Shown here one piece after another: positions 11,982 to 52,229 of a stretch of DNA of 64,000 nucleotides. The position numbers and the translations under genes are program-made. The notes under the pieces are model-generated. The model was not told the DNA's origin and searched no databases. It saw only the letters and a list, made by a program, of their open reading frames with translations. The stretch is taken from NCBI GenBank assembly GCA_963702425.1, contig CAVPCQ010000016.1, positions 128,001 to 192,000 of the forward strand, given 5' to 3'. Position 1 is the first letter of the stretch, and each line of letters opens with the position of its first letter. The stretch comes from an uncultured Acidobacteriota bacterium. Lineage in GTDB: Bacteria; Acidobacteriota; Polarisedimenticolia; J045.

Positions 11982-16856
<4,875 letters not shown>

Positions 16857-16937: not shown

Positions 16938-16953
16938 CGGCACGCGAGTTGCT
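16938..16953 (+). promoter_or_regulatory. Sigma-54 (-24/-12) promoter
   Basis: CGGCACGCGAGTTGCT matches (T/C)GGCAC-N5-TTGC(A/T) with exact GG-N10-GC spacing. Confidence 0.75.
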
Positions 16954-16963
16954 CTACCCGCTC

Positions 16964-17205: not shown

Positions 17206-18483
17206 TCAGCCGTGCGCTCGCCCCAGCACGAGCGCACGCAGTTCCCGCGCCTCCGCCACGCCGTTCCCGCCTGCGGTCCGCCGCCCGTCGGCGCGCGCCG
17301 CCTCCCACCCGGGAACGAGCGCCGCGTCGAAGCGCGGCTCGAAGCGGCGCGCCAGTTCGACCGCCAGCGCCGCACGCGTCGCCGGCGCGCGCCCCGGCGC
17401 GAGCACACCCGCGAGGAAGAGCGCCCCCTGCGCCAGCGCGGCCATCAGGTTCAGCCGCGCGAGGAAGATCGCGTTGGCCTCCGGAACGAAGGTCGCGCCG
17501 CGCGCCTCGGCCGCCGCAAGCGCTCCGTCCACGGGGGTCGCGAGGGCCCGCGTGCCGGCCAGCCAACGGACGAACCGGGCGCGCTCGTGGGGCCCGAAGA
17601 CAACCGGGAAGAGGTCCGCCAACCAGCGTGCGCGTCCCGCGCGCGTGCCTCGCGGGTCGATCCCGACCCCCTGTGCCAGCGCGTCGATCAGGCCGTGCAC
17701 GAACAGCGGCACGTCCAGGTCGGGAGCCGGCGAATCCTCGCGCGCCCAGCGCCGCACGACGCGCGAGAACGCGGGGACGCGGCACCCCGGCGCGGCGCGC
17801 CGGCGCTCCAGGGTCCCCTTCCCCGCGCGCCGCCAGCCCGTGCCGGCCGCGTCGCCGTCGAGGTCGTGAAAGACGCGGACCAGCGCCTCGCCGCCGATTC
17901 CGTGCCGCGAGAGAGCGTGCGGCAGGTGCGGGGCGGCGAGGTGCGCTTCGCCGAAGACGACGATCACCGTACCCTGCGGTCCGAGCGTCTCGGCCAGCGC
18001 GGCGATCCGCTCGGCGGCGACGCGGTCGCGGCGCGCCAGGCTCTCGACCCCGCCGCGCGGCGGCAGGTCGAGCCCGAGCGCCGGCACGCCGTGCGCGCGG
18101 GCGCACCGCAGCAGCCGCGCCGATGCGGCCCACGGATAGCCCCATTCCTCTTCGTAACGAATCAGCCGCCGCAGTTCGGCCGCGCCGACGCCGCCGGAGA
18201 GGTAGCGATCGAGCGCGGCCTGGTCGCGCGCGTGGACCATCTCGAGTCCGAGCGCGAGCGGCCGCGCCGCGAGCCGGTGGACCAGCGCGACCGCGGTCTC
18301 GAGCGCCGAGGGGAGCGCGTGAAACTCGCCGAGCAGCACGACCCGCGCGCGGCGCACGGTCGCCAGCGCCTCGGCCGCGCGGCCGCGCGCGAATCGCAGG
18401 CCGCGGACTTCGCGGTGGAAGCGGCGGACGTAGGGGGATCCGGCGACCGGATCGAGGTCGACGGGCAGGTCGGAGGCGCTCAG
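17206..18483 (-). CDS. ChaN / haem-cofactor-binding-like family protein (start uncertain)
   Basis: [49 protein letters not shown]; only a CTG overlapping the tatA stop is available as a natural start. Confidence 0.6.
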
Positions 18484-37530: not shown

Positions 37531-39611
37531 CCGCCCGTCGCTCCTTCTACGTCACGACCCCGATCTACTACGTCAACGACCTGCCGCACATCGGCCACAC
37601 CTACACCACGGTCGTCGCCGACGCGCTGGCGCGCTTCCACCGCCTGGCGGGCGACGAGGTCTACTTCCTGACCGGGACCGACGAGCACGGGCAGAAGATC
37701 GAGCGCGCGGCGGCGAAGCGCGGGATCGCGCCGCTGGCGCTGGCCGACGAGGTGGTGCTCAACTACCGGCAGCTCTGGCCGGCGCTGGCGATCAGTCACG
37801 ACGACTTCATCCGCACCACGGAAGCGCGGCACAAGGCCGGGGTCTACGAGCTGTTCCGCAGGATCCGCGAGAAGAGCCCCGACGCGATCTACAAGGGCAC
37901 TTATCGCGGCCTCTACTGCACCGGCTGCGAGGCGTTCTACACCCCCGCGCAGCTGGTCGACGGAAAGTGCCCCGAACAGGGCCATCCGGTCGAGGAGGTC
38001 GAGGAATCGTCCTGGTTCTTCCGGCTCTCGGCCTACCAGGACCGGCTGCTCGCGCTGTACGACCGGCAGCCCGGGTTCGTGCTGCCCGAGACGCGGCGCA
38101 ACGAGGTCCGCGCCTTCGTGGCCTCCGGGCTGCGCGACCTCTCGATCTCGCGCAGCAGGGACAAGGTCGGCTGGGGGATCCCCTTCCCCGGCGACCCCGA
38201 GCACGTCGTCTACGTCTGGTTCGACGCGCTGACCAACTACCTCTCGGCGCTCGGCTACGGCTCCGACGACCCGCGCAAGGTCGCGCGCTACTGGCACAAC
38301 GAGCCGGGGCACACGGCGCTGCACCTGGTGGGCAAGGACATCCTGCGCTTCCACGCGGTCTACTGGCCGGCCTTCCTGATGGCCGCCGGCGAGGAGCTGC
38401 CGCGCACGGTCTTCGGCCACGGCTGGTGGCTGAAGGACGACGCCAAGATGAGCAAGACGACCGGCAACATCGCGCGGCCCGGTCCGCTGCTCGAGACCTT
38501 CGGGGCCGATGCGCTGCGCTGGTTCCTGCTGCGGGAGATCCCGCTCGGGCTCGACGGCTCGTACTCCGACGAGGCGGTGCTGGAGCGGACCAACTCCGAC
38601 CTGGCCAACAACGTCGGCAACCTCTACTCGCGGGTGCTGGCGCTGATCGAGAAGAACGAAGCGGGCGTCGTCCCCGCCGCGGACGGCGCGCCGGCCGACG
38701 CGGTGCTCGACGGTCTGGCCGCCGCGGCGCGCGCGGCCTACCGCGCGGGGTTCGAGACCCACGACCCGTCGGCCGCGCTGCGCGCGGTGACCGAGTGGGC
38801 CGACGCGCTGAACAAGTACTTGGTGCGCCACGAGCCGTGGAAGCGGCCCGGGCGCGAGGCGCTGACCGCGGGGGTGCTGGGCGTCGCCGCGCAGCAGCTC
38901 GCGCAGATCGCGCTGCGGCTGCACCCGGCGATGCCGGTCGCCGCCGCCCGGCTGTGGCGGATGCTCGGCCTGGGCGAGGACCCGGCGCGCGAGATCGCGC
39001 CCGGCGTCGACCTGCTGGAGCTGGAGACGCTCCCCGTCGCCGGCCGCCGCATTGGCGCCGGCGAGGCCGTCTTCCCGCGCCTCGACCGCAAGGCCATCTT
39101 CGGCGACGTCGCTCCCGCTGCTGCGCCCCCCGTGGCCTCCTCCGGCGCGCCCACTGTAGGGGCCGGCCTCCGTGCCGGCCCGCCCACTGTAGGGGCCGGC
39201 CTCCGTGCCGGCCCGCAAGAGGCATCGACCGTGTCCGACACGCCACCCCCCGCCCCCGCCTCGCCCCCTTCTCCGCTGCCCGACGGCCTGATCGCGATCG
39301 ACGAGTTCTCGAAAGTCCAGCTGCGCTGCGCGAAAGTCCTGGTCTGCGAGCGCCACCCGAACGCCGAGAAGCTCCTTCGCCTCGAAGTGGACCTCGGTGG
39401 CGAGACGCGGCAGCTCGTCGCCGGCATCGCCTCGGCCTACCGGCCGGAGGACCTGGTCGGCCGAACGATCATCGTCGTCGCCAACCTCAAGCCGGCCAAG
39501 CTCCGCGGCCTCGAGTCGCAGGGGATGCTGCTCGCGGCGACCGGCCCGGACGGCGTGCCGCACGTGCTGGGGCCGGACGGCGAGGTACCGCCCGGGTCCA
39601 AAGTGTCCTAG
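37527..39611 (+). CDS. metG: Methionine--tRNA ligase with C-terminal tRNA-binding domain
   Basis: FYVTTPIYYVN..PHIGH, LTGTDEHGQK, YVWFDAL, KMSKT, VANLKPAKLRGLESQGMLLAA; ATGA overlap with larC. Confidence 0.97.
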   Translation: MTARRSFYVTTPIYYVNDLPHIGHTYTTVVADALARFHRLAGDEVYFLTGTDEHGQKIERAAAKRGIAPLALADEVVLNYRQLWPALAISHDDFIRTTEARHKAGVYELFRRIREKSPDAIYKGTYRGLYCTGCEAFYTPAQLVDGKCPEQGHPVEEVEESSWFFRLSAYQDRLLALYDRQPGFVLPETRRNEVRAFVASGLRDLSISRSRDKVGWGIPFPGDPEHVVYVWFDALTNYLSALGYGSDDPRKVARYWHNEPGHTALHLVGKDILRFHAVYWPAFLMAAGEELPRTVFGHGWWLKDDAKMSKTTGNIARPGPLLETFGADALRWFLLREIPLGLDGSYSDEAVLERTNSDLANNVGNLYSRVLALIEKNEAGVVPAADGAPADAVLDGLAAAARAAYRAGFETHDPSAALRAVTEWADALNKYLVRHEPWKRPGREALTAGVLGVAAQQLAQIALRLHPAMPVAAARLWRMLGLGEDPAREIAPGVDLLELETLPVAGRRIGAGEAVFPRLDRKAIFGDVAPAAAPPVASSGAPTVGAGLRAGPPTVGAGLRAGPQEASTVSDTPPPAPASPPSPLPDGLIAIDEFSKVQLRCAKVLVCERHPNAEKLLRLEVDLGGETRQLVAGIASAYRPEDLVGRTIIVVANLKPAKLRGLESQGMLLAATGPDGVPHVLGPDGEVPPGSKVS
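39150..39214 (+). repeat. Two REP copies inserted in frame in metG (33-bp period)
   Basis: CCCACT-GTAGGGGCCGGCCTCCGTGCCGGCCCG twice, same REP as at 35739-36050; encodes PTVGAGLRAGP x2. Confidence 0.9.
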
Positions 39612-39674: not shown

Positions 39675-42600
39675 ATGCCCGAGAAAGAGCCCCGCCGCGG
39701 CGCCTCCCGCGCCGAGATCGAGAGCGCGTTGCGGCGCGCGGGCGGCAACCGCGCCGAGGCGGCGCGCGCCCTCGGGGTCGGCCGGGCCACTCTCTACCGT
39801 TGGATCGAGGCCGAGGCGATCGAAGGCACCGACGGCTCGAGCCTGATCGGTGGTCGCTACGAGTTGCTGCGCCCGCTCGGCAGCGGCGGCCAGGCGACGG
39901 TCTTCCTGGTGCGCGACCGCGCGGCCGCCGGACGCGGCGAGCCGTCCGAGCGCGCACTCAAGCTGCTGCACGCCGAGGTCGGCGAACCGGAAGAGGTCGA
40001 GCGGTTGCGCGGCGAGTTCCGCGCGCTGGCCGGCCTGCGCCACCCGGGATTGGTGCGCGTCTTCGACTTCGGCGTGGACGACGCCAGCGGGCGGCCGTTC
40101 CTGGTGATGGAGGTCGTGCCGGGCACGCCGTTCGTCGCGGCCGCCGCCGGGCGCTCGACCCGGTGGGTCCTGGCCGCGCTCGCCGCCGCGCTGCGCGCGG
40201 TCGCGCACCTGCACCGCCGCGGGATCGTGCACCGCGACCTGAAGTCCGAGAACGTGCTCGTCGCGCCGGGAAGCGATCCGGGACGCCCGGGCCGCGCGAC
40301 GGTGATGGACCTCGGCCTGTCGGAGGCGCTGGCCGGGCCGCAGCAGGGCGCCGGCGGCACACTGCTCTACGCCGCGCCGGAGTTGCTCGCCGGCGAGCGC
40401 GCCTCCGCCCGCAGCGACGTCTTCGCACTCGGGGTGACGCTCGAGCGCGCGCTCGACGAACGGCGCGACGACCGGCCGCCCGGTCTCGACGCGTTCCTCG
40501 CGCGGATGACCGCGGCCGACCCGGCGGCGCGCTTCGCCGATGCCGCGGTGGCGCTCGAGGAGCTGGAGCGGATCGCAGGTCCACTGCCCGACGCCGCCGG
40601 TCCGGCCGACGGGACCGCGGTCGCCTTCGTCGGCCGCGCGGCCGAACTGGCCGAAGCGCTGGCGCGCCTCGATCCGGCACGCGACGCGGCAACGCCGCCG
40701 TTGCTGCTGATCACCGGCGAAGGGGGCGCGGGCAAGTCGCGCCTGCTCGAGGCCGTGCTCGACGAGCTGCGCGCCCGCGGGACCGCGGTCGCGCGCGGCA
40801 CCTGCCGCCCGGGCGGCGAGCACAGCCTCGATCCGCTGGTCGAACTGCTGGCCGAGGTGCTCGGCGGCGCCGACGGAACCGGGACGGCGCCGGCCGACGA
40901 GCTGGTGCGCCGGCACCGCGCCGCGCTGGCCGCGGTCGCGCCGGCGCTCGTCGCCCCCGCGGCGGACGAGCCCCCGCCCGACCGTCGGACCGCGATCGCC
41001 GCGCTGGCCGAGCTGGCGGTCGAGTCGGCACGCGCGCGGCCGCTGGTGCTGGCGGTCGAGGACCTGCACGACGCCGACCCGTTCGTGCTCGACCTCGTCG
41101 CCGCGATCGCCCGCCGCGCGCGCGGCACCGCGCTGCGCGTCGCGGCCACCGCCCGGCCCGACGAGGATCGACCCGCGTTCGCCGCCGCGGCCCGCGCGCT
41201 GGAGGCCGAGGGGCTGTTCGCGGCGCTGCTGCTCGGCCCGCTCTCGCGCGCCGAGGTTGCAGCGCTGGCCGCCGAGGTCGTCGGGCCGGCACGCGCCGCG
41301 CTGCTGGCCGAGCGGGTCCACGGGCTGACCTCCGGGAACGCGTTCTTCGCCGAGACGGTGCTGCGCGATCTCGCCGAGCGGGTCGGCGGCGACGGCGACG
41401 AGCTGCGCCTGCCGACCAGTCGCCAGGAAGCGCTGGCCGAGAATGTCGCGCGCAGCGGCCCGGCCGGGATCGCGCTGCTCGAAGCGCTCGCCGTCGCCGG
41501 CGCGCCGGAGACCGACGTCGACCTGCGCGCCGTCGTCAGTGGCGCTGGGGGCGGCGAAGCCGCAGGCGTCGCCGCCGCGGACGCCGTCCCGGCGCTGCTC
41601 GCACGCCGGATGCTCGTGCGCCGCGACGACGGGCGGCTCGACCTGGCGCACGCGACGCTGCGCGAGGCGCTGCTCGAGGCGGCGGGCGCGGAGCGCCGGC
41701 GCGCGCTGCACCGCGCCTGGGCCGCGCTCGCCGCAGACGACTCGGCGCGGATCGTCGAGCGTGCCGGACACCTGCTGGCGGCCGCGGACGGCGCGGGCCA
41801 TGCGGACGCGCTGCTCGCGGCCGCCGACACGCTCGAGCGCTCGTGGCGGCCGGGGGCGGCGATCCCGTTCCTCGAAGCGGTGCTCGCGGCGTCGCTCGAG
41901 ACTGCGGTCAGCGCGGCGTCGCTCGATGCCGCGCCCCGCACCGCGCGCGAGCGGCTCGCGCTCTACGCACGGCTCGAGCGGGCCTGGCACGCGATCCGCA
42001 ACGACGTCCGCGCGATCGACCTCTGTCGCGCCTGGGCCGACGCCGCGCGGGCGCTCGGCGACGCGGCCTCGGAATCGCGGGCGCTCGGAATGCTCGCGGC
42101 ACGGCTGCGCGGCCTCGCCCGCTTCGACGAGGCGCGGGCCGCGGCCGAGAGCGCGGTTGCGCTGGCGAAAGGCAGCGGCGACCCGGCGGCGCTCGCGCTG
42201 GCGCTGAAGATCCTGGCCAGCGTGCAGCTCACGGCCTGGGATCACGACGCCGCCCTGGCAACGATGGAGCAGGCGCTGGCGCTCTTCCGCGAGACGGAGG
42301 ACCCAGGGCGCGCGGGCAGCGCCGAACGTGCCGGCGGCGCCGAGCGCTCCCGCGACGTCGCGACCTGTCTCAACGACATCGCGTTGCTGCGCGCGCTCGG
42401 CGGCCGGACACAGGCCGCGCTCGAGGCACTGGACGAGGCGCGGGCGATCTTCCGCGGGCTCGACGACCGCGTCTGGGCGGCGAACCTCCACGTCAACGAG
42501 GCGCTGGTGCGGACCTTCCTCGGCGACCTGGCGGGGGCGGCGGCGCGCCTCGACGAGACGCTGGCCGAGATCCCGGCGCTCGGCGCCGCGGTGCCGCTCG

Positions 42601-44943
42601 AGCTGGCGCTCGAGAACCTCGGCCTCGTGCAGCTCCGGCTCGGGCGCTACGAGGCGGCGCTGGCGACCGGCCGCCGGCTGCTCGACGAGGCGACCCGCTT
42701 CGACCGCCGGGCCTACCGCGTCTCCGGGCTGCTGATCGCCGGCGAGGCGCTGTTCTGGACCGACGAGCGCGACGCCGCGCGCGAGCACGACCGGCTCGCG
42801 CTCTCGCTGGCCGAGGCGCTGGGCGAAGCAGCGCAGCTTCAGTTCGCACGGCTCGCCGTCGCGCGCGACCGGCGCGCCGACCGCGCCCTCGACGCCGCGC
42901 GCGAGGCAGCCGACGCCGCGCTGGCCGACTCCGAGCGCACCGGAAACCTCAGGATCCGCGCACTGGCGGCGCTCGAGCGGGCACGGATCGCGCTCGACGA
43001 AGAGGACGCCCCGGGCGCGCTGGCCTGGCTCGACCGGGCCGAAGTCGCGCTGGCGGTTCCGCGCGAGGACGGCCCGGCCACGCGTGCCGCGCTGCTCTAC
43101 GAGCGCGCCCGCGCGCGCCGACTGGCGCGCCAGCCGGACCTGGCGCGGGCCGACGCCGAGGAGGCGATCGGCCTGGCGCGGCGCTCCGGGATGACCGAGC
43201 TGGAACTGCGCGCGCTGGCCGTGCTGGCCGGTCTGTTCGCCGAGCGCGGCGACCAGCCGGCGGCGGACGAGGCGCTGGCCCACGCGGTGGCGCTGGCCGA
43301 CGCGCTGGCCGGCGGGATCGCCGACCCGGCGCGGCGCGCGCGCTTCCTCGGCCGGCCCGACCTGCTCGCCCTGCGCGACGCGGCGGTCCGCCGGGGCGCG
43401 CTGCAGCCCGCCGGACGCGCCGCCGCCCCGGCCGGCCGGGCACGCGGCCTCGACCCGCTGGCCGCGCTCTACGAAGTCGCGCAAGCGGTGGCCGACGAGG
43501 GCGACCTCGACCCGCTCTTCCGCCGGATCGTGGCCCTCGCGGTCGAGCAGGCGGGCGCGGAGCGCGGCCTGCTGCTGCTGCGCCGCGCGGACGGCGGCGC
43601 GCTGGAGCCGGTCGCGGCCGAGGGGGTGGAGGACCGGACCGCGCACGACGCGGTGCAGATCTCGAAGAGCGTGCTGGCCCGCGCCGACGAGGGGCACGCG
43701 ATCCTGGCCCGTGACGCGCGCTCGCATCCCGACCTGTCGGAAGCGCAGTCGGTGGCGCTGTTCGACATCCGCTCGGTGATGTGCGTTCCGCTGCGCCTCG
43801 GGCGCGAAGTGCTGGGCACGCTGTACGTCGACACCCGCGGCGCGCACGCCGCGTTCTCGGAAGCCGATCTGCGCTTTCTCGAGGCGCTGGCCGCGCAGGC
43901 GGCGGTCGCGCTGGGCTACGGGCGGCTGGTCGGCCGGTTGTCGCGCGAGCGCGAGGCGCTACGCCAGGCAGCCGACGCGGCGCGCGGTTTCGGCGAGCTG
44001 ATCGGCCGCTCGGCGGCGATGCGCCGCGTCTTCGAGACCCTGGCCAAGGTCGCGCCGACCTCGCTGCCGGTGATCGTCACCGGGGAGTCGGGGACCGGCA
44101 AGGAGCTGGTCGCACGCGCGCTGCACGAGTCCTCTCCGCGTCGCGCCCACCCGTTCCTGACCGAGAACTGCGCGACGATTCCTGAGACGCTGCTGGAGAG
44201 CGTCCTGTTCGGCCACGCGCGCGGCGCGTTCACCGGGGCGGACGCACCGCGCCGTGGCCTGTTCGAGCTGGCGGACGGCGGAACCCTGGTGCTGGACGAG
44301 ATCGGCGACATGAGCCCGGGGCTGCAGGCCAAGCTGCTGCGCGTGCTGCAGGACCGCGCCTTCCGGCCGCTCGGCAGCGAGCGGCTGGTGCGCGCCGACG
44401 TGCGGGTCGTCGGCGCGACCCACCGCGATCTCGAGTCGCTGATGCGGGACGGCGTTTTCCGGCAGGACCTCTACTTCCGGCTCAACGGAATCACGATCGA
44501 GATCCCGCCGCTGCGCGAGCGCCGCGAGGACGTCCCGCTGCTGGCGCATCACTTCCTGGAACGCGAGGCCCGGGCGGCCGGCCTTCCCGCTCCTCCCACG
44601 CTGGAGCCGTCGGCCCTTCGCGCGCTGGCCGCGCTCGACTGGCCGGGCAACGTGCGCCAGCTCGAGCACACGATGCGGCGTCTCCTGATCTTCGCCGAGG
44701 GGGGCCGGATCACGCGCGAGACCCTGGCCGCGGACCCGGAGCTGGCGGCGGCCGCAGGGCTGAAGGCGGGGGCGGCGGGCGGAGCGAGGGCGGCCGCGGG
44801 ATCCGCGCCGGTGCCCCCGATCCGAGCAGGCGGTCCGGGAGGCGCTCGCCCGCACGGGTGGAAACCGCAAGGAGGCGGCGCGGACGCTGGGCCTGTCGCG
44901 CGCGACCTTCTACCGCCGGCTGGGGGAGCTGGGGATCCGCTGA
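39675..44943 (+). CDS. Giant sigma-54 activator 2: Fis HTH - Ser/Thr kinase - STAND-like ATPase - TPR-like repeats - GAF - AAA+ - Fis HTH (frameshift near 44820)
   Basis: N-terminal GGNRAEAARALGVGRATLYRW; LGSGGQATV, HRDLKSEN, DLG, APE; GEGGAGKSRL, LAVEDLH; SVMCVPL..LYVDTR; GESGTGKE, GAFTGA, WPGNVRQLE; an alternative frame from ~44824 gives EQAVREALARTGGNRKEAARTLGLSRATFYRRLGELGIR with TGA at 44941-44943. Confidence 0.88.
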
Positions 44944-45084
44944 GGGAGTGTCTCCAGGCGTGTGGTCCACGCGGCGAGTTGCGGGTCCGGGACGGTCCGC
45001 GTTCCGGCCGAGCCCGGGTTCGAGTTCACGCTGAGCGTGGTGCCGCTTCCCGATGGGCCGTGAGGGGAGCCCTTCCTTCACCTT

Positions 45085-45250
45085 CCCGTGAGACACCCTC
45101 CGTGTCTCACGGGGCGCGGACACGCCCTTCGGCCCCCTTCTCCGTGAGACACCGCAACCCCTTGCAAAGACACGATTTGCTGGATGAGACACCTCATCTC
45201 CCCCGTGTCTCATGGACACGGCCTCCCGAGTGTCTCATCCCCATAAGACA
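45085..45250. promoter_or_regulatory. Enhancer (UAS) array of TGAGACAC / GTGTCTCA boxes
   Basis: Exact boxes at 45089, 45102, 45145, 45185, 45205, 45230, including the 12-bp inverted repeat CCCGTGAGACAC-N5-GTGTCTCACGGG; degenerate copies at 44948, 45166, 45214, 45244. Confidence 0.8.
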
Positions 45251-45255
45251 AGCAA

Positions 45256-45268
45256 TATCAACCACTTG
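45256..45268 (+). promoter_or_regulatory. IHF binding site
   Basis: TATCAACCACTTG is an exact WATCAANNNNTTR match located between the enhancer array and the promoter. Confidence 0.7.
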
Positions 45269-45284
45269 ACGCCGCCGCTCCGCA

Positions 45285-45300
45285 TGGCCCGCCTCTTGCA
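45285..45300 (+). promoter_or_regulatory. Sigma-54 (-24/-12) promoter
   Basis: TGGCCCGCCTCTTGCA, GG-N10-GC; predicted +1 near 45311, RBS AAAGGAGG 45313-45320, ATG 45328. Confidence 0.85.
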
Positions 45301-45327
45301 GTAGTGCTTTTCAAAGGAGGAAGGACC

Positions 45328-47277
45328 ATGAAACCCGCACGCTGTTTCCTGGCACTCGCACTGGTGCTGGCGCTCGTCCCGCTCGCGCTTGCCGGGGGCA
45401 AGCCGACTGCGGTGCTTGCGCGCGACCTGGGCGCGGCGTTCGACGCGGCGAAGACCCCGGCCGGCACGCCGGTCGTGATCCAGCTCCGCGACGGCGCGAA
45501 ACTTGGCGGTCCGCTCGCGGCGCTCGCGGCGTCGGGCCGCACGGTCGGCCACGGCGCGCTCGTCGCCGCGCTCGATCGGGCGACGCTCGACCGCCTGGCG
45601 GCCGACCCCGCGGTGCTCTCGCTTTCGCCCGACCGCGAGATCCGCGCCAACCTCGACGTCGGCCGCCCGGCGGTCAACGGCGACATCGCCTACACCACGA
45701 CCGGTGCGACCGGCCGCGGCGTGACCGTGGCGCTGATCGACTCCGGACTCGCGCCGGGCATCGCGGTCCCCGAGTCGCGCGTCTTGGCGCGCGTCGACTT
45801 CGTCGATCCGAAGGGCAAGGCGCGCGACGGCTTCGGCCACGGCACCCACATCGCCGGGATCATCGGCGGGCGGGACGGCGTGGCGCCGGAGACCAACTTC
45901 GTCGTGCTGCGCGTGCTCGACGACCAGGGGGCCGGCCGGCTCTCGTCGGTGATCTCGGCGGTCGACTGGGCGATCGCCAACAAGGCCGCGTACGGGATCG
46001 AAGTCGTCAACCTGTCGCTGGGCTACACGCCGCAGATGTCGTTCCGGTTCGACCCGCTGAACGTCGCGGTGCGCCGGGCCTGGGACGCCGGGCTGACGGT
46101 CGTCGCCTCGGCCGGCAACCGCGGCCGCGATGGCCGCCTGACGATCAACGCACCGGGCAACGACCCGCTGGTGATCACCGTCGGCGCGATGAACGACTTC
46201 AACACCGTGGCCCGCGGGGACGACTCGGTGACCACGTTCTCCGGCCGCGGCCCGTCGCTGGGCGACCTGGTCGTGAAGCCGGACGTCGTCGCGCCGGGCA
46301 ACCGGATCGTCGGGGCGATGGCTCCCAACTGCTCGCTGGCGACGAACTACCCCGACAAGGTCGTGGACAACAATCTCGAACTGTCCGGCACGAGCATGGC
46401 GGCCGGCTTCGCCACGGCGACCGCCGCGCTGCTGCTCGAGCGCTACCCCGACGCCAGCAACGACGCGATCAAGTCGATCCTGATGCGCTCGGCGGAAAAG
46501 GTGCCGGGCGACGTCTTCGCGCGCGGCGCGGGCTACCTCGACGCGCTGAAGGCGCTCCAACTGGCGGCTACGATGGCGACGCCGCGCGACTTCAACTCGG
46601 CCTCCCCGCTCGTGGCGCGCACGCCGAAGGGCGTGGCCTTCTACACCCTGAACGGCAAGACCCACCGCCCGGTGCTGCTGGCCAACGTCGGTGCGACTTA
46701 CGGCAAGGGCGCGACCTATGGCGACCCGCAGTTCTGGCACGACGCGGAGCTGTGGGGCGAGCGGGCCGCGGCCTATGCCGACGGCGTGATCTGGGCCGAC
46801 GGCGTGATCTGGGGCGACGGCGTGATCTGGGGCGACGGCGTGATCTGGGGCGACGGCGTGATCTGGGGCGACGGCGTGATCTGGGGCGACGGCGTGATCT
46901 GGGGCGACGGCGTGATCTGGGCCGACGGCGTGATCTGGGGCGACGGCGTGATCTGGGGCGACGGCGTGATCTGGGGCGACGGCGTGATCTGGGGCGACGG
47001 CGTGATCTGGGCTGACGGCGTGATCTGGGGCGACGGCGTGATCTGGGGTGACGGCGTGATCTGGGGCGACGGATTGCTCTGGGGCGACGGCGTGATCTGG
47101 GGTGACGGCGTGATCTGGGGCGACGGCGTCATCTGGGCCGACGGCGTGATCTGGGGTGACGGTGTGATCTGGGGTGACGGCGTGATCTGGGCCGACGGTG
47201 TGATCTGGGGCGATGGCGTGATCTGGGGCGACGGCGTGATCTGGGGTGACTCGCTCACGGGCGCCGTAGCCGACTGA
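45328..47277 (+). CDS. Secreted S8 subtilisin-like serine protease with C-terminal (DGVIWG)26 tail
   Basis: Signal peptide, prodomain, LIDSG, GHGTHIAG, SAGNRG, SGTSMAA (complete triad and oxyanion Asn), then the hexapeptide repeat. Confidence 0.93.
   Translation: MKPARCFLALALVLALVPLALAGGKPTAVLARDLGAAFDAAKTPAGTPVVIQLRDGAKLGGPLAALAASGRTVGHGALVAALDRATLDRLAADPAVLSLSPDREIRANLDVGRPAVNGDIAYTTTGATGRGVTVALIDSGLAPGIAVPESRVLARVDFVDPKGKARDGFGHGTHIAGIIGGRDGVAPETNFVVLRVLDDQGAGRLSSVISAVDWAIANKAAYGIEVVNLSLGYTPQMSFRFDPLNVAVRRAWDAGLTVVASAGNRGRDGRLTINAPGNDPLVITVGAMNDFNTVARGDDSVTTFSGRGPSLGDLVVKPDVVAPGNRIVGAMAPNCSLATNYPDKVVDNNLELSGTSMAAGFATATAALLLERYPDASNDAIKSILMRSAEKVPGDVFARGAGYLDALKALQLAATMATPRDFNSASPLVARTPKGVAFYTLNGKTHRPVLLANVGATYGKGATYGDPQFWHDAELWGERAAAYADGVIWADGVIWGDGVIWGDGVIWGDGVIWGDGVIWGDGVIWGDGVIWADGVIWGDGVIWGDGVIWGDGVIWGDGVIWADGVIWGDGVIWGDGVIWGDGLLWGDGVIWGDGVIWGDGVIWADGVIWGDGVIWGDGVIWADGVIWGDGVIWGDGVIWGDSLTGAVAD
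46780..47247 (+). repeat. 26 tandem 18-bp units GACGGCGTGATCTGGG(G/C)C encoding DGVIW(G/A)
   Basis: Counted directly: 20 DGVIWG, 5 DGVIWA, 1 DGLLWG; 26 x 18 = 468 bp. Confidence 0.97.
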
Positions 47278-47433: not shown

Positions 47434-48213
47434 CTAGGATGGGCGCGCGTCCAGGTCGACGAAGACCGGCGCATGGTCCGAAGGCTTATCGCCTCGGCGC
47501 GGCTCGACGTCGATCTCCGCGGCCGCGGCCCGCACGGCGACGGGTCCGGTCGCGAGCACCAGGTCGATCCGCGCGCCGAGGTTGCGCCGGAAGGCGTTCA
47601 TCCGGTAGTCCCACCAGGAGTAGCGCTTCGGGGCGTCGTCGCAGCGCCGATAGACGTCCGCCAGCCCCCAGTCGAGCAGGCGTTTGAGCCGGACCCGCTC
47701 CTCGTCGGTGAACAGGATCGAGAAGCGGAACTCCTGCGGGTCGTAGACGTCGCGCTCCTCGGGGATGAGGTTGAAGTCGCCGAGCAGCACGAGCGGCTGG
47801 TCCGGGCGGTGGGCCGTTTCGAGGTGGCGCGCGAGGTCGTCGAGCCAGCGCAGCTTGTAGGAGTACTTGTCGGTCCCGACCTCCTGACCGTTCGGCACGT
47901 AGAGGTTGAGGAAGCGGATCCCGCCGACGGTAGCGGCCACGGCGCGGGCCGCGGGGTCCCAGGCCAGCTCGGGGAGGCCGACCGCCGGGTCCTCGAGCGG
48001 GGCCCGCGCCAGCAGCGCGACACCGTTGTAGGTCTTCTGCCCGAGGACGACGGCCTCGTAGCCGGCCGCGCGCAACGCGTCGCGCGGGAAGTCGGCGTCC
48101 GTGAGCTTCAGCTCCTGGAGCCCGATCACGTCGGGCCGGCGGGCCGCGAGCCAGTCGAGGACCGCCGGCAGCCGGACCTTGAGCGAGTTGACGTTCCAGG
48201 TGGCGATGCGCAT
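47434..48213 (-). CDS. xth: Exodeoxyribonuclease III
   Basis: MRIATWNVNSL, LQELK, YNGVA, NLYVPNG, GDFN, YSWWDYR, RIDLVL, SDHAP. Confidence 0.95.
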   Translation of the reverse strand: MRIATWNVNSLKVRLPAVLDWLAARRPDVIGLQELKLTDADFPRDALRAAGYEAVVLGQKTYNGVALLARAPLEDPAVGLPELAWDPAARAVAATVGGIRFLNLYVPNGQEVGTDKYSYKLRWLDDLARHLETAHRPDQPLVLLGDFNLIPEERDVYDPQEFRFSILFTDEERVRLKRLLDWGLADVYRRCDDAPKRYSWWDYRMNAFRRNLGARIDLVLATGPVAVRAAAAEIDVEPRRGDKPSDHAPVFVDLDARPS

Positions 48214-48369
48214 CGCGGCTCCGGGCCCGCGGCGCGGCCGCGGGGCGGCAGTGTAGCGCAGGCGCGCGGTGGCGATCCCGCGGCAGGGAGGGCGGTGCGA
48301 CCGGCTCGGGAGTTCTTGCTTGACGGTTCGCACGCGAGCTTCCTACACTCCGTTCCGGAGCCCCTGGCC

Positions 48370-48933
48370 ATGAGCACCCCCGGACACAGCCGCGCACCGA
48401 TGACCGCCGCCGACTACCTTGCGATGGCGGACGACGGGCGGCGCTACCAGCTGTTCGATGGGGAACTCGCAGAGATGACACCGGGACCTTCGGTGCGGCA
48501 CCAGCTGATCGTGATGAAGCTCGCGGCCTGGCTGCACGGTCACGCGGAGGCCCGCGGCCTCGGCAGGATCATCCCCTCCCCCGTCGACGTCATCCTCGGC
48601 CCACGGACGGTCGTCCAGCCGGACCTCCTGTTCATCGCGGCCGCGCACGCGGCGGCTCTCGACATGGACCGCGTGCGGATCGCGCCGGACCTCGTCGTCG
48701 AGATCCTCTCGCCCTGGACCCGTGGCGACGACCTCGGGCGCAAGGCGGACCTCTACGCCGCGGCCGGCGTCGCGCACTACTGGATCGTGGACCCCGAGGC
48801 CCGTTCGATCGCCGAGTGGATTCTCGAGGGCGGACGATTCGTGGAGCGCGCCCGTGCGTCGTCCGGCGGGCGGTTGCGGCCCGCGCTTTTCCCGGGGCTC
48901 GAGCTGGATCTCGACACCCTCTTCCGGGCCTGA
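48370..48933 (+). CDS. Uma2 family endonuclease-like protein
   Basis: RYQLFDGEL, P...HQ, VQPDLLFI, APDLVVEILSP, K..LYAAAGVAHYWIVDP. Confidence 0.9.
   Translation: MSTPGHSRAPMTAADYLAMADDGRRYQLFDGELAEMTPGPSVRHQLIVMKLAAWLHGHAEARGLGRIIPSPVDVILGPRTVVQPDLLFIAAAHAAALDMDRVRIAPDLVVEILSPWTRGDDLGRKADLYAAAGVAHYWIVDPEARSIAEWILEGGRFVERARASSGGRLRPALFPGLELDLDTLFRA

Positions 48934-51134: not shown

Positions 51135-52229
<1,095 letters not shown>

Follow-up and report, generated by a model that had tools for sequence, protein, structure and literature searches.

What does a giant regulatory gene control when a gene for a secreted protease lies directly behind it? This question is raised by positions 39675–47277 of a 64-kb stretch of DNA (the window), part of contig C16 of a metagenome-assembled genome (MAG) of an uncultured Acidobacteriota bacterium (G000; 5.1 Mb, 71% G+C). 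Its nearest relatives in the databases also carry the label uncultured Acidobacteriota. The locus encodes a very large sigma-54 activator, an array of repeated DNA boxes, a sigma-54 promoter and an S8 (subtilase) protease with a tail of tryptophan repeats. Our analysis suggests that the two genes form a dedicated pair of activator and target, to which we assign a probability of about 75%. The regulatory design itself is known. The unusual part is the input side of the activator, with a kinase, a STAND-TPR region, a GAF domain and an extra N-terminal helix-turn-helix (HTH) domain.

Domain architecture of the activator

The activator gene starts at ATG 39675, which is preceded by GGAGG. The gene and its parts are listed below, with positions in the window and amino acids (aa) in the protein.

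39675–44943, + strand: giant activator gene, 1,755 aa after dropping one base at 44814–44819
39708–39800, + strand: N-terminal Fis-type HTH domain (HTH_8), aa 12–42, Pfam E 4e-8
39858–40448, + strand: Hanks-type Ser/Thr kinase (Pkinase), aa 62–258, Pfam E 4e-26
40626–41120, + strand: STAND P-loop NTPase (AAA_16), aa 318–482, E 2e-22
41860–42735, + strand: TPR array (TPR_12 in Pfam), about aa 730–1020, LGN/Pins/kinesin-light-chain type
43503–43913, + strand: GAF domain (Pfam), aa 1277–1413
43998–44735, + strand: sigma-54 AAA+ domain and lid, aa 1442–1687
44814–44819, + strand: frameshift site CCCCCG, one base extra compared with relatives, in a G+C-rich linker of variable length
44833–44943, + strand: C-terminal Fis-type HTH_8 domain and stop, in frame +1 relative to the gene body, E 3e-12

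The Pfam domains run in this order from the N to the C terminus, beginning and ending with HTH_8. The original prediction had placed a kinase, a STAND-like P-loop domain, helical repeats, a GAF domain and a GAFTGA-containing AAA+ domain in a single protein, and all of these were found by Pfam and by their motifs. It had overlooked the N-terminal HTH_8 domain.

The output module is well defined. Sigma54_activat (PF00158) covers aa 1442–1609 (E 1e-67) and AAA_lid_14 aa 1614–1687. Walker A is GESGTGKE (aa 1470–1477, 44082–44105), GAFTGA is located at aa 1517–1522 (44223–44240), and the Walker B DE at aa 1541–1542 (44292–44306). The best NCBIfam match of residues 1262–1698 is NifA (E 3e-107), at 359.5 bits against a cut-off of 528.85. 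The activator is therefore not a NifA equivalog. The genome contains about 33 sigma-54 activator genes.

The kinase carries ALK (Lys 96), HRDLKSEN (186–193), DLG (212–214) and APE (234–236). ALK, HRDLKxxN and APE are retained in all seven aligned orthologs and D-L-G in six of them, P0007 having DLW. Relative to other genera, the kinase C-lobe in the genus of the window is about 26 residues shorter (around activator aa 255–262, window ~40440–40460); this gap leaves all catalytic motifs in place. A kinase with such a gap may be capable of autophosphorylation only, or may be a scaffold.

In the STAND domain, Walker A is GEGGAGKS (348–355) and a Walker B-like motif is VEDLH (461–465). An nSTAND6 match (E 6e-5) is under the cut-off. 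The STAND part has distant sequence similarity to STANDs linked to LuxR/GerE, SARP or cyclase domains, and TPR_MalT matches were found in orthologs. When a profile of the helical region was compared with the PDB, it matched the peptide-binding TPR proteins LGN, Pins and kinesin light chain (E 1e-16). The same comparison returned no solved STAND regulator at E ≤ 0.001.

When 1.84 billion representative proteins were searched with a profile, about 19 clusters had E-values below 1e-130 and make up the ortholog group; beyond them, the matches fall off steeply to generic STAND-TPR proteins. The orthologs are 1,724–1,752 aa long, and all six close ones (P0003–P0008) have two HTH_8 stretches. Nine further members of the group were scanned, and seven were full-length and informative. 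In six of these seven, the kinase begins at about residue 56–60, behind an N-terminal HTH. P0123 begins at the kinase, and in P0128 neither a kinase nor an HTH was matched at the threshold applied. Overall, the N-terminal HTH is present in 12 of the 13 full-length orthologs. In contrast, all four kinase-STAND-sigma-54 proteins of paralog type begin with the kinase and have a C-terminal HTH only. The predicted N-terminal Fis-type HTH is thus a mark of the ortholog group.

A second giant activator gene is located in the window at 11982–16856. It encodes 1,624 aa with Pkinase, GAF, Sigma54_activat and one C-terminal HTH_8, and has no N-terminal HTH. A sigma-54 promoter lies downstream of it (CGGCACGCGAGTTGCT, 16940–16955, 11 of 12 positions).

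The intergenic region and its sigma-54 promoter

The activator and protease genes are separated by 384 nucleotides (nt), which contain the following elements.

44960–45063, + strand: 3′ remnant of a Uma2-family gene, within the first 120 nt past the activator
45086–45240, no strand assigned: enhancer array of six exact TGAGACAC boxes plus GGACAC/AGACAC half-boxes
45256–45268, + strand: IHF-type bending site TATCAACCACTTG
45285–45300, + strand: sigma-54 (-24/-12) promoter TGGCCCGCCTCTTGCA, transcription start expected near 45311
45314–45320, + strand: ribosome-binding site AAGGAGG, ahead of ATG 45328

The six boxes, the exact IHF consensus, the -24/-12 promoter and the strong ribosome-binding site had all been called in the original prediction, and each call was borne out. 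Three copies of TGAGACAC are on the + strand (45089, 45145 and 45185) and three on the - strand (45102, 45205 and 45230). These are its only copies in the window, all inside 45089–45237. Shuffled windows contain 0.77 copies on average, and none of 100 reaches six. The whole genome has 22 copies, compared to about 70 expected from base composition, and the array is the only place where at least two lie within 150 bp. The extended boxes form two groups, CCGTGAGACAC three times in the distal part and ATGAGACAC three times in the proximal part; the box variants contrast as CGTGAGACAC versus ATGAGACAC. The array also contains a perfect 12-nt palindrome with a 5-nt spacer (CCCGTGAGACAC-N5-GTGTCTCACGGG, 45085–45113).

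The IHF consensus WATCAANNNNTTR has a single exact match in the window, at 45256–45268, and none in 100 shuffles. The promoter matches 11 of 12 specified positions. The two genome strands together (10.2 Mb) have 41 sites that match this well, so that 450 nt would be expected to contain 0.0018. The genome encodes RpoN (C6, 152698–153171, 206 bits). An Rfam search of 44800–45500 gave no match at E ≤ 1.

One 169-nt contig of a sediment metatranscriptome (X20) covers 45314–45475 with 17 differences at depth 2, and begins 3 nt from the predicted start. It comes from a relative, contigs are uninformative on transcription starts and the library possibly contains DNA, so we do not count it as evidence of expression.

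Conservation of the gene pair

We searched 119 genomes of the class, 22 of them other members of the same family and 96 from other families. The thresholds were E ≤ 1e-30 for the STAND-TPR part of the activator and E ≤ 1e-40 for the protease. A search for related loci among genome contigs had given 53 loci, with only six true relatives, all from Acidobacteriota MAGs, and generic STANDs as the remainder. Because generic STANDs dominate that search, neighborhood counts were taken from the class search.

The activator is found in 20 of the 22 other family genomes, and the protease in 20 of the same 22. Outside the family, the activator has one match in 96 genomes, a weak one in the unpublished G030. 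G014, which is 99% complete, has neither at the thresholds used. The two genes are adjacent in 11 genomes from seven of the twelve genera of this single Acidobacteriota family, counting two abutting contigs in G064.

Tandem order (8): G000, G003, G004, G008, G009, G012, G018, G064
Divergent order (3): G006, G007, G016

A Uma2 gene lies between the pair in G004, and about 2.8 kb in G003. No counter-example to adjacency on the same contig was seen among the family genomes. In another family, G020 has a more distant activator without an N-terminal HTH, followed in tandem by such a protease. Genes downstream of the protease are common only within a genus, and across genera only the predicted activator and protease are conserved. 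The pairing of the activator with a single protease gene, proposed from the window, is thus found in both orientations.

The regulatory elements are conserved as well. A -24/-12 element, with 9–11 of 12 positions matched, is present 42–152 nt ahead of the coding start in every one of the 14 protease upstream regions examined. In all 14, a CAA-N4-TT(G/A) core starts about 25–55 nt upstream of this element. Each region also contains 3–10 GAGAC/GTCTC cores in the 172–220 nt before the promoter. In total, these 3,008 nt contain 95 cores, which makes 6.9 per 220 nt, compared to 0.45 elsewhere in the loci (about 15-fold). Among genomes of the genus, all 48 box columns are invariant, compared to 89 of 182 (49%) of the other intergenic columns. 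G005 and G015 have the protease on its own short contig, with boxes and promoter, and the protease contig of G017 carries both as well. The enhancer, IHF-type site and sigma-54 promoter layout first proposed for the window is therefore backed by all 14 regions and by the presence of rpoN.

In genera with the divergent order, a conserved leader of about 100 nt (…ctacaggagggcgaacgcagcgcccggacaggacatccgaggcggc…) lies between promoter and protease start codon (L022 and L023, from G007 and G016). It may be an added regulatory leader. The leader in the genus of the window is only about 17 nt.

Several observations weigh against a dedicated pair. The compared genomes are relatives and their counts are not independent trials, so that the counts overstate the support. 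Ten of the 21 activator-bearing family genomes could not be tested for adjacency, because the contigs break off at the genes or within them. In G015, activator and protease are on different short contigs, and the activator contig has 1.3 kb downstream without a protease. The best activator match in G017 (C209) is followed by 5.8 kb without boxes, promoter or protease, which excludes a tandem layout there and leaves a divergent or unlinked one. In three genomes from two genera (L024, L025 and L035, from G009, G018 and G008), the -12 element is TTGA instead of TTGC (TGGCAAGGAACTTGAT, TGGCAAGGGAATTGAT and TGGCATGCCGATTGAA), a departure from the usual GC at -12. The genome has four DNABII (HU/IHF-family) genes, and none is above the IHF alpha or beta cut-offs (best 98.7 versus 119.95 bits). 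The bending protein would be one of these four candidates, with no IHF proper assigned. Finally, the assembled activator loses its C-terminal HTH by a frameshift and may be impaired in this strain.

The boxes could also belong to another regulator, with the giant activator acting elsewhere or on many promoters and the adjacency reflecting shared history. Binding of the boxes by the activator is a prediction, and the genome has about 33 sigma-54 activator genes. Two paralogous proteases with the same tail have sigma-54 promoters and no activator nearby, so control in trans exists in this organism. However, the pair persists through an inversion of gene order, through the insertions in G004 and G003 and across seven genera. 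The boxes are always between or beside the two genes, and the exact 8-mer clusters nowhere else in the genome. For activators of this class, a gene position beside the promoter that they act on is the usual arrangement. We consider a separate regulator improbable, and a dedicated pair remains the preferred reading.

A frameshift ahead of the C-terminal HTH

As assembled, frame 0 of the activator gene continues to 45269 and gives 1,864 aa. The stretch with the C-terminal HTH_8 is in frame +1 (44764–44943), with the stop TGA at 44941–44943. Removal of one base at 44814–44819 gives 1,755 aa, which matches the length of the orthologs. The description of the activator as a protein of about 1,750 aa thus holds once this base is dropped and fails for the assembled gene; nor can the assembled activator be called intact, since the shift precedes the C-terminal HTH.

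The shift could be real in this strain. The activator would then have no C-terminal DNA-binding domain and an out-of-frame tail of about 150 residues, and the module would be decaying, or working on the N-terminal HTH alone. The assembly itself reads this way, with frame 0 open to 45269 and HTH_8 in frame +1. The neighboring Uma2 gene, intact in G004 (191 aa), is mostly deleted here, which suggests that the locus changed recently. On the other hand, DNA alignment with two genomes of the same genus, G004 and G001, places the shift in the length-variable linker, and both are in frame. The extra base is located at a run of five C (44814–44818). A 556-nt contig from a sediment metagenome (X1) has exactly one base fewer at 44819, beside this run, which restores the frame. 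This contig has 17 differences in 307 aligned bases (about 94% identity) at depth 6.8, and comes from a relative. The HTH codons past the shift are undamaged, and the boxes, promoter and protease are all intact. In G003, also of the same genus, the activator gene is matched in several reading frames (L036, C18:60204–64467). This suggests multiple indels in that assembly or a decayed gene; as several frames in one gene indicate, indel errors occur in these assemblies. On the basis of the one contig from a relative, we put the odds at about four to one for an assembly error at the homopolymer over a real lesion, which makes the latter unlikely.

Public sequencing runs were compared with sampled words of the stretch. 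None reached half of them, and the best shares were 0.32 and 0.25.

The protease and its Trp-repeat tail

The third group of features contains the protease and the gene that follows it.

45328–47277, + strand: secreted S8 (subtilase) protease gene, 649 aa
46779–47250, + strand: Trp-repeat tail, 26 tandem hexapeptides DG(V/L)(I/L)W(G/A), 18-nt period
47437–48333, - strand: Exo_endo_phos gene, convergent, outside the module, ending the protease transcription unit

The protease has a Sec-type signal peptide (about aa 1–22, …LALA/GG, without a lipobox), a pro-region and a catalytic domain (Peptidase_S8, PF00082, aa 129–402, E 3e-43). The triad D138, H171 and S356 is in subtilisin order and invariant in all eight aligned orthologs. 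Because the next gene is convergent, the protease is probably transcribed alone. A simple terminator scan past the protease gave no sites.

The tail was counted at 26.2 copies with 92% matches, and DG[VL][IL]W was counted 26 times. This confirms the 26 DGVIWG repeats first described for the S8 protease. The repeat is kept across genera, with about 5 to about 30 copies, and reads DQILWG in one genus. In the genome, the tail is found at six loci, in all six behind an S8 domain. The five further proteases of this type are located on C1, C25 (two) and C28 (two).

A profile of five tails was compared with the PDB. All 15 chains at E ≤ 1 (E 0.008–0.6) are left-handed beta-helix hexapeptide proteins, including LpxD, acetyltransferases, gamma-carbonic anhydrases and eIF2B-epsilon. 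The look-alikes of the tail in the protein atlas are Acidobacteriota fragments, with Hexapep in 19–36% of members. Pfam searches of three tails at E ≤ 10 gave nothing relevant and no Hexapep, and NCBIfam gave no match. AlphaFold2 models of the protease (eight-sequence alignment, mean predicted local distance difference test (pLDDT) 45.4) and of the tail alone (pLDDT 31.2, without secondary structure) were set aside. Like LpxD, LpxA-like proteins, maltose O-acetyltransferase and gamma-carbonic anhydrase, the tail has a strict six-residue period with Gly and aliphatic positions. Unlike these proteins, it has a Trp in each repeat and is attached to a subtilase, not an acyltransferase. A beta-helix-like rod is its most likely fold, and we lean modestly towards it; we treat this as a lead and not as a result.

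Two of the paralogous proteases, on C25 and C28, share a near-identical upstream region (C25 ~18033–18090 and C28 ~52078–52135, both - strand) with sigma-54-type promoters GGGCACGCGCCTTGCT and CGGCACACGCCTTGCT, 54 nt ahead of the start. Predicted sigma-54 control of this protease type is thus recurrent in the genome. The paralogous proteases lack TGAGAC boxes and have no activator gene nearby on their contigs, which rules them out as members of the module.

Surrounding genes

Upstream of the activator, metG ends at 39611. In the C-terminal linker of its product (window 39100–39300), a low-complexity PTVGAGLRAGP sequence is present twice, ahead of the C-terminal tRNA-binding domain. Uma2-family genes, which encode putative restriction endonucleases, come and go at the locus. 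The intact gene of G004 lies between activator and protease (L021, 5540–6115, - strand), and the window has an extra copy at ~48409–48933, downstream of the convergent Exo_endo_phos gene.

A model for activation of the protease gene

The arrangement suggests a pathway for activation. The activator would bind the TGAGAC(AC) array, 75–225 bp upstream of the protease transcription start site, most likely through its Fis-type HTH domain or domains. When the sensory part permits, the AAA+ domains would form an active ring. Candidate controls are nucleotide- or ligand-driven oligomerization of the STAND-TPR region, the kinase, and relief of repression by the GAF domain. The STANDs MalT and AfsR oligomerize on ligand and ATP, and in NifA and NorR the GAF domain represses the AAA+ domain. 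By the same logic, STAND-TPR oligomerization and GAF relief could jointly license ring assembly on the boxes, and the kinase could contribute a phosphorylation gate. A bend at CAA-N4-TTG, made by one of the four HU/IHF-family proteins, would carry the ring to sigma-54 RNA polymerase waiting at TGGCCC-N5-TTGCA, where ATP hydrolysis would open the promoter. A monocistronic subtilase mRNA would be made, and the subtilase exported by its Sec signal peptide. The 26 C-terminal hexapeptides would probably form the left-handed beta-helix-like rod.

A more specific version is tentative and, taken as a whole, doubtful. A STAND switch of the NLR type would be wired to a sigma-54 AAA+ motor in one polypeptide, with two HTHs per subunit. 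Ligand-driven STAND-TPR oligomerization would build the activator ring over about nine half-sites, and the kinase would act as a second gate. The TPR array is of the LGN/kinesin-light-chain type, which binds peptides, so that the ligand is perhaps an oligopeptide released by the protease. Imported peptides can be proposed as the ligand only speculatively, from this TPR type and the protease output. If true, a positive loop that senses substrate would control extracellular proteolysis.

A STAND NTPase with a TPR sensor could also indicate an NLR-type immune or defense sensor with the protease as its effector. A recent survey of STANDs describes many anti-phage receptors among these families, and counts MalT, GutR and AfsR among the non-immune ones (PMC13581612). 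In the locus, PADLOC gave only generic matches to the kinase (PD-T4-6), the AAA+ domain (RtcR-type) and the subtilase (IetS), and no system match beyond these shared domains, so the defense-system reading was rejected. Moreover, the predicted output is a transcript for an exported enzyme, which carries a signal peptide and could not halt an intracellular infection, and the genome has five further proteases of the same type. An immune role is thus very improbable. The term NLR-like, used for the activator in the original prediction, is apt for the STAND-TPR architecture only.

Comparison with known systems

The C-terminal part of the activator resembles NifA, NorR and FhlA, bacterial enhancer-binding proteins of the GAF type. 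They share the order of GAF, AAA+ with GAFTGA and Fis-type HTH, and work, as predicted for the activator, with upstream sites and a -24/-12 promoter. Unlike these proteins, the activator carries HTH_8, Ser/Thr kinase, STAND NTPase and TPR in about 1,270 additional residues at its N terminus, and its predicted target is a secreted protease. The intergenic layout has close counterparts at the nifH, glnHp2 and Pu promoters, where an upstream activating sequence array, an IHF-type site and a -24/-12 element have the same order and similar distances. In contrast to these promoters, the TGAGAC(AC) box cannot be assigned to a known activator, and no IHF proper was found in the genome.

The N-terminal part resembles STAND regulators. 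MalT, AfsR and GutR also have a P-loop STAND NTPase followed by a helical or TPR sensor that gates a DNA-binding output. They recruit sigma-70 polymerase through LuxR- or SARP-type domains, whereas the output of the activator is a second ATPase, an AAA+ ring predicted to remodel sigma-54 polymerase. PknK of Mycobacterium tuberculosis has an N-terminal Hanks kinase followed by an AAA_16/STAND domain and a helical region, as in the activator. To our knowledge, PknK has no sigma-54 AAA+ module and no GAF domain.

Known sigma-54 activators are gated by receiver, PAS, GAF or V4R domains or by partner proteins, while the STAND regulators MalT and AfsR act on sigma-70 polymerase. A 2011 survey of sigma-54 activators describes receiver, PAS and GAF inputs (PMC3162934). 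Our full-text literature search found neither a kinase-STAND-sigma-54 fusion nor a subtilase with Trp hexapeptides described in a paper. What is new is the protease-linked subfamily with two HTHs, the TGAGAC enhancer, the breadth of conservation and the Trp-hexapeptide tail.

The module unites the logic of sigma-54 activators and of STAND regulators with a eukaryote-type kinase in one chain, with a single promoter as the predicted read-out. It is a tractable case of how one oligomerizing ATPase governs the assembly of another, and the conserved box array and the two HTHs offer concrete binding experiments. The Trp-hexapeptide tail, which in this genome occurs only on subtilases, extends this thoroughly studied enzyme family in a way that has no published description. 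The pair may also provide a route to the signals by which abundant uncultured Acidobacteriota release proteases into sediment and soil.

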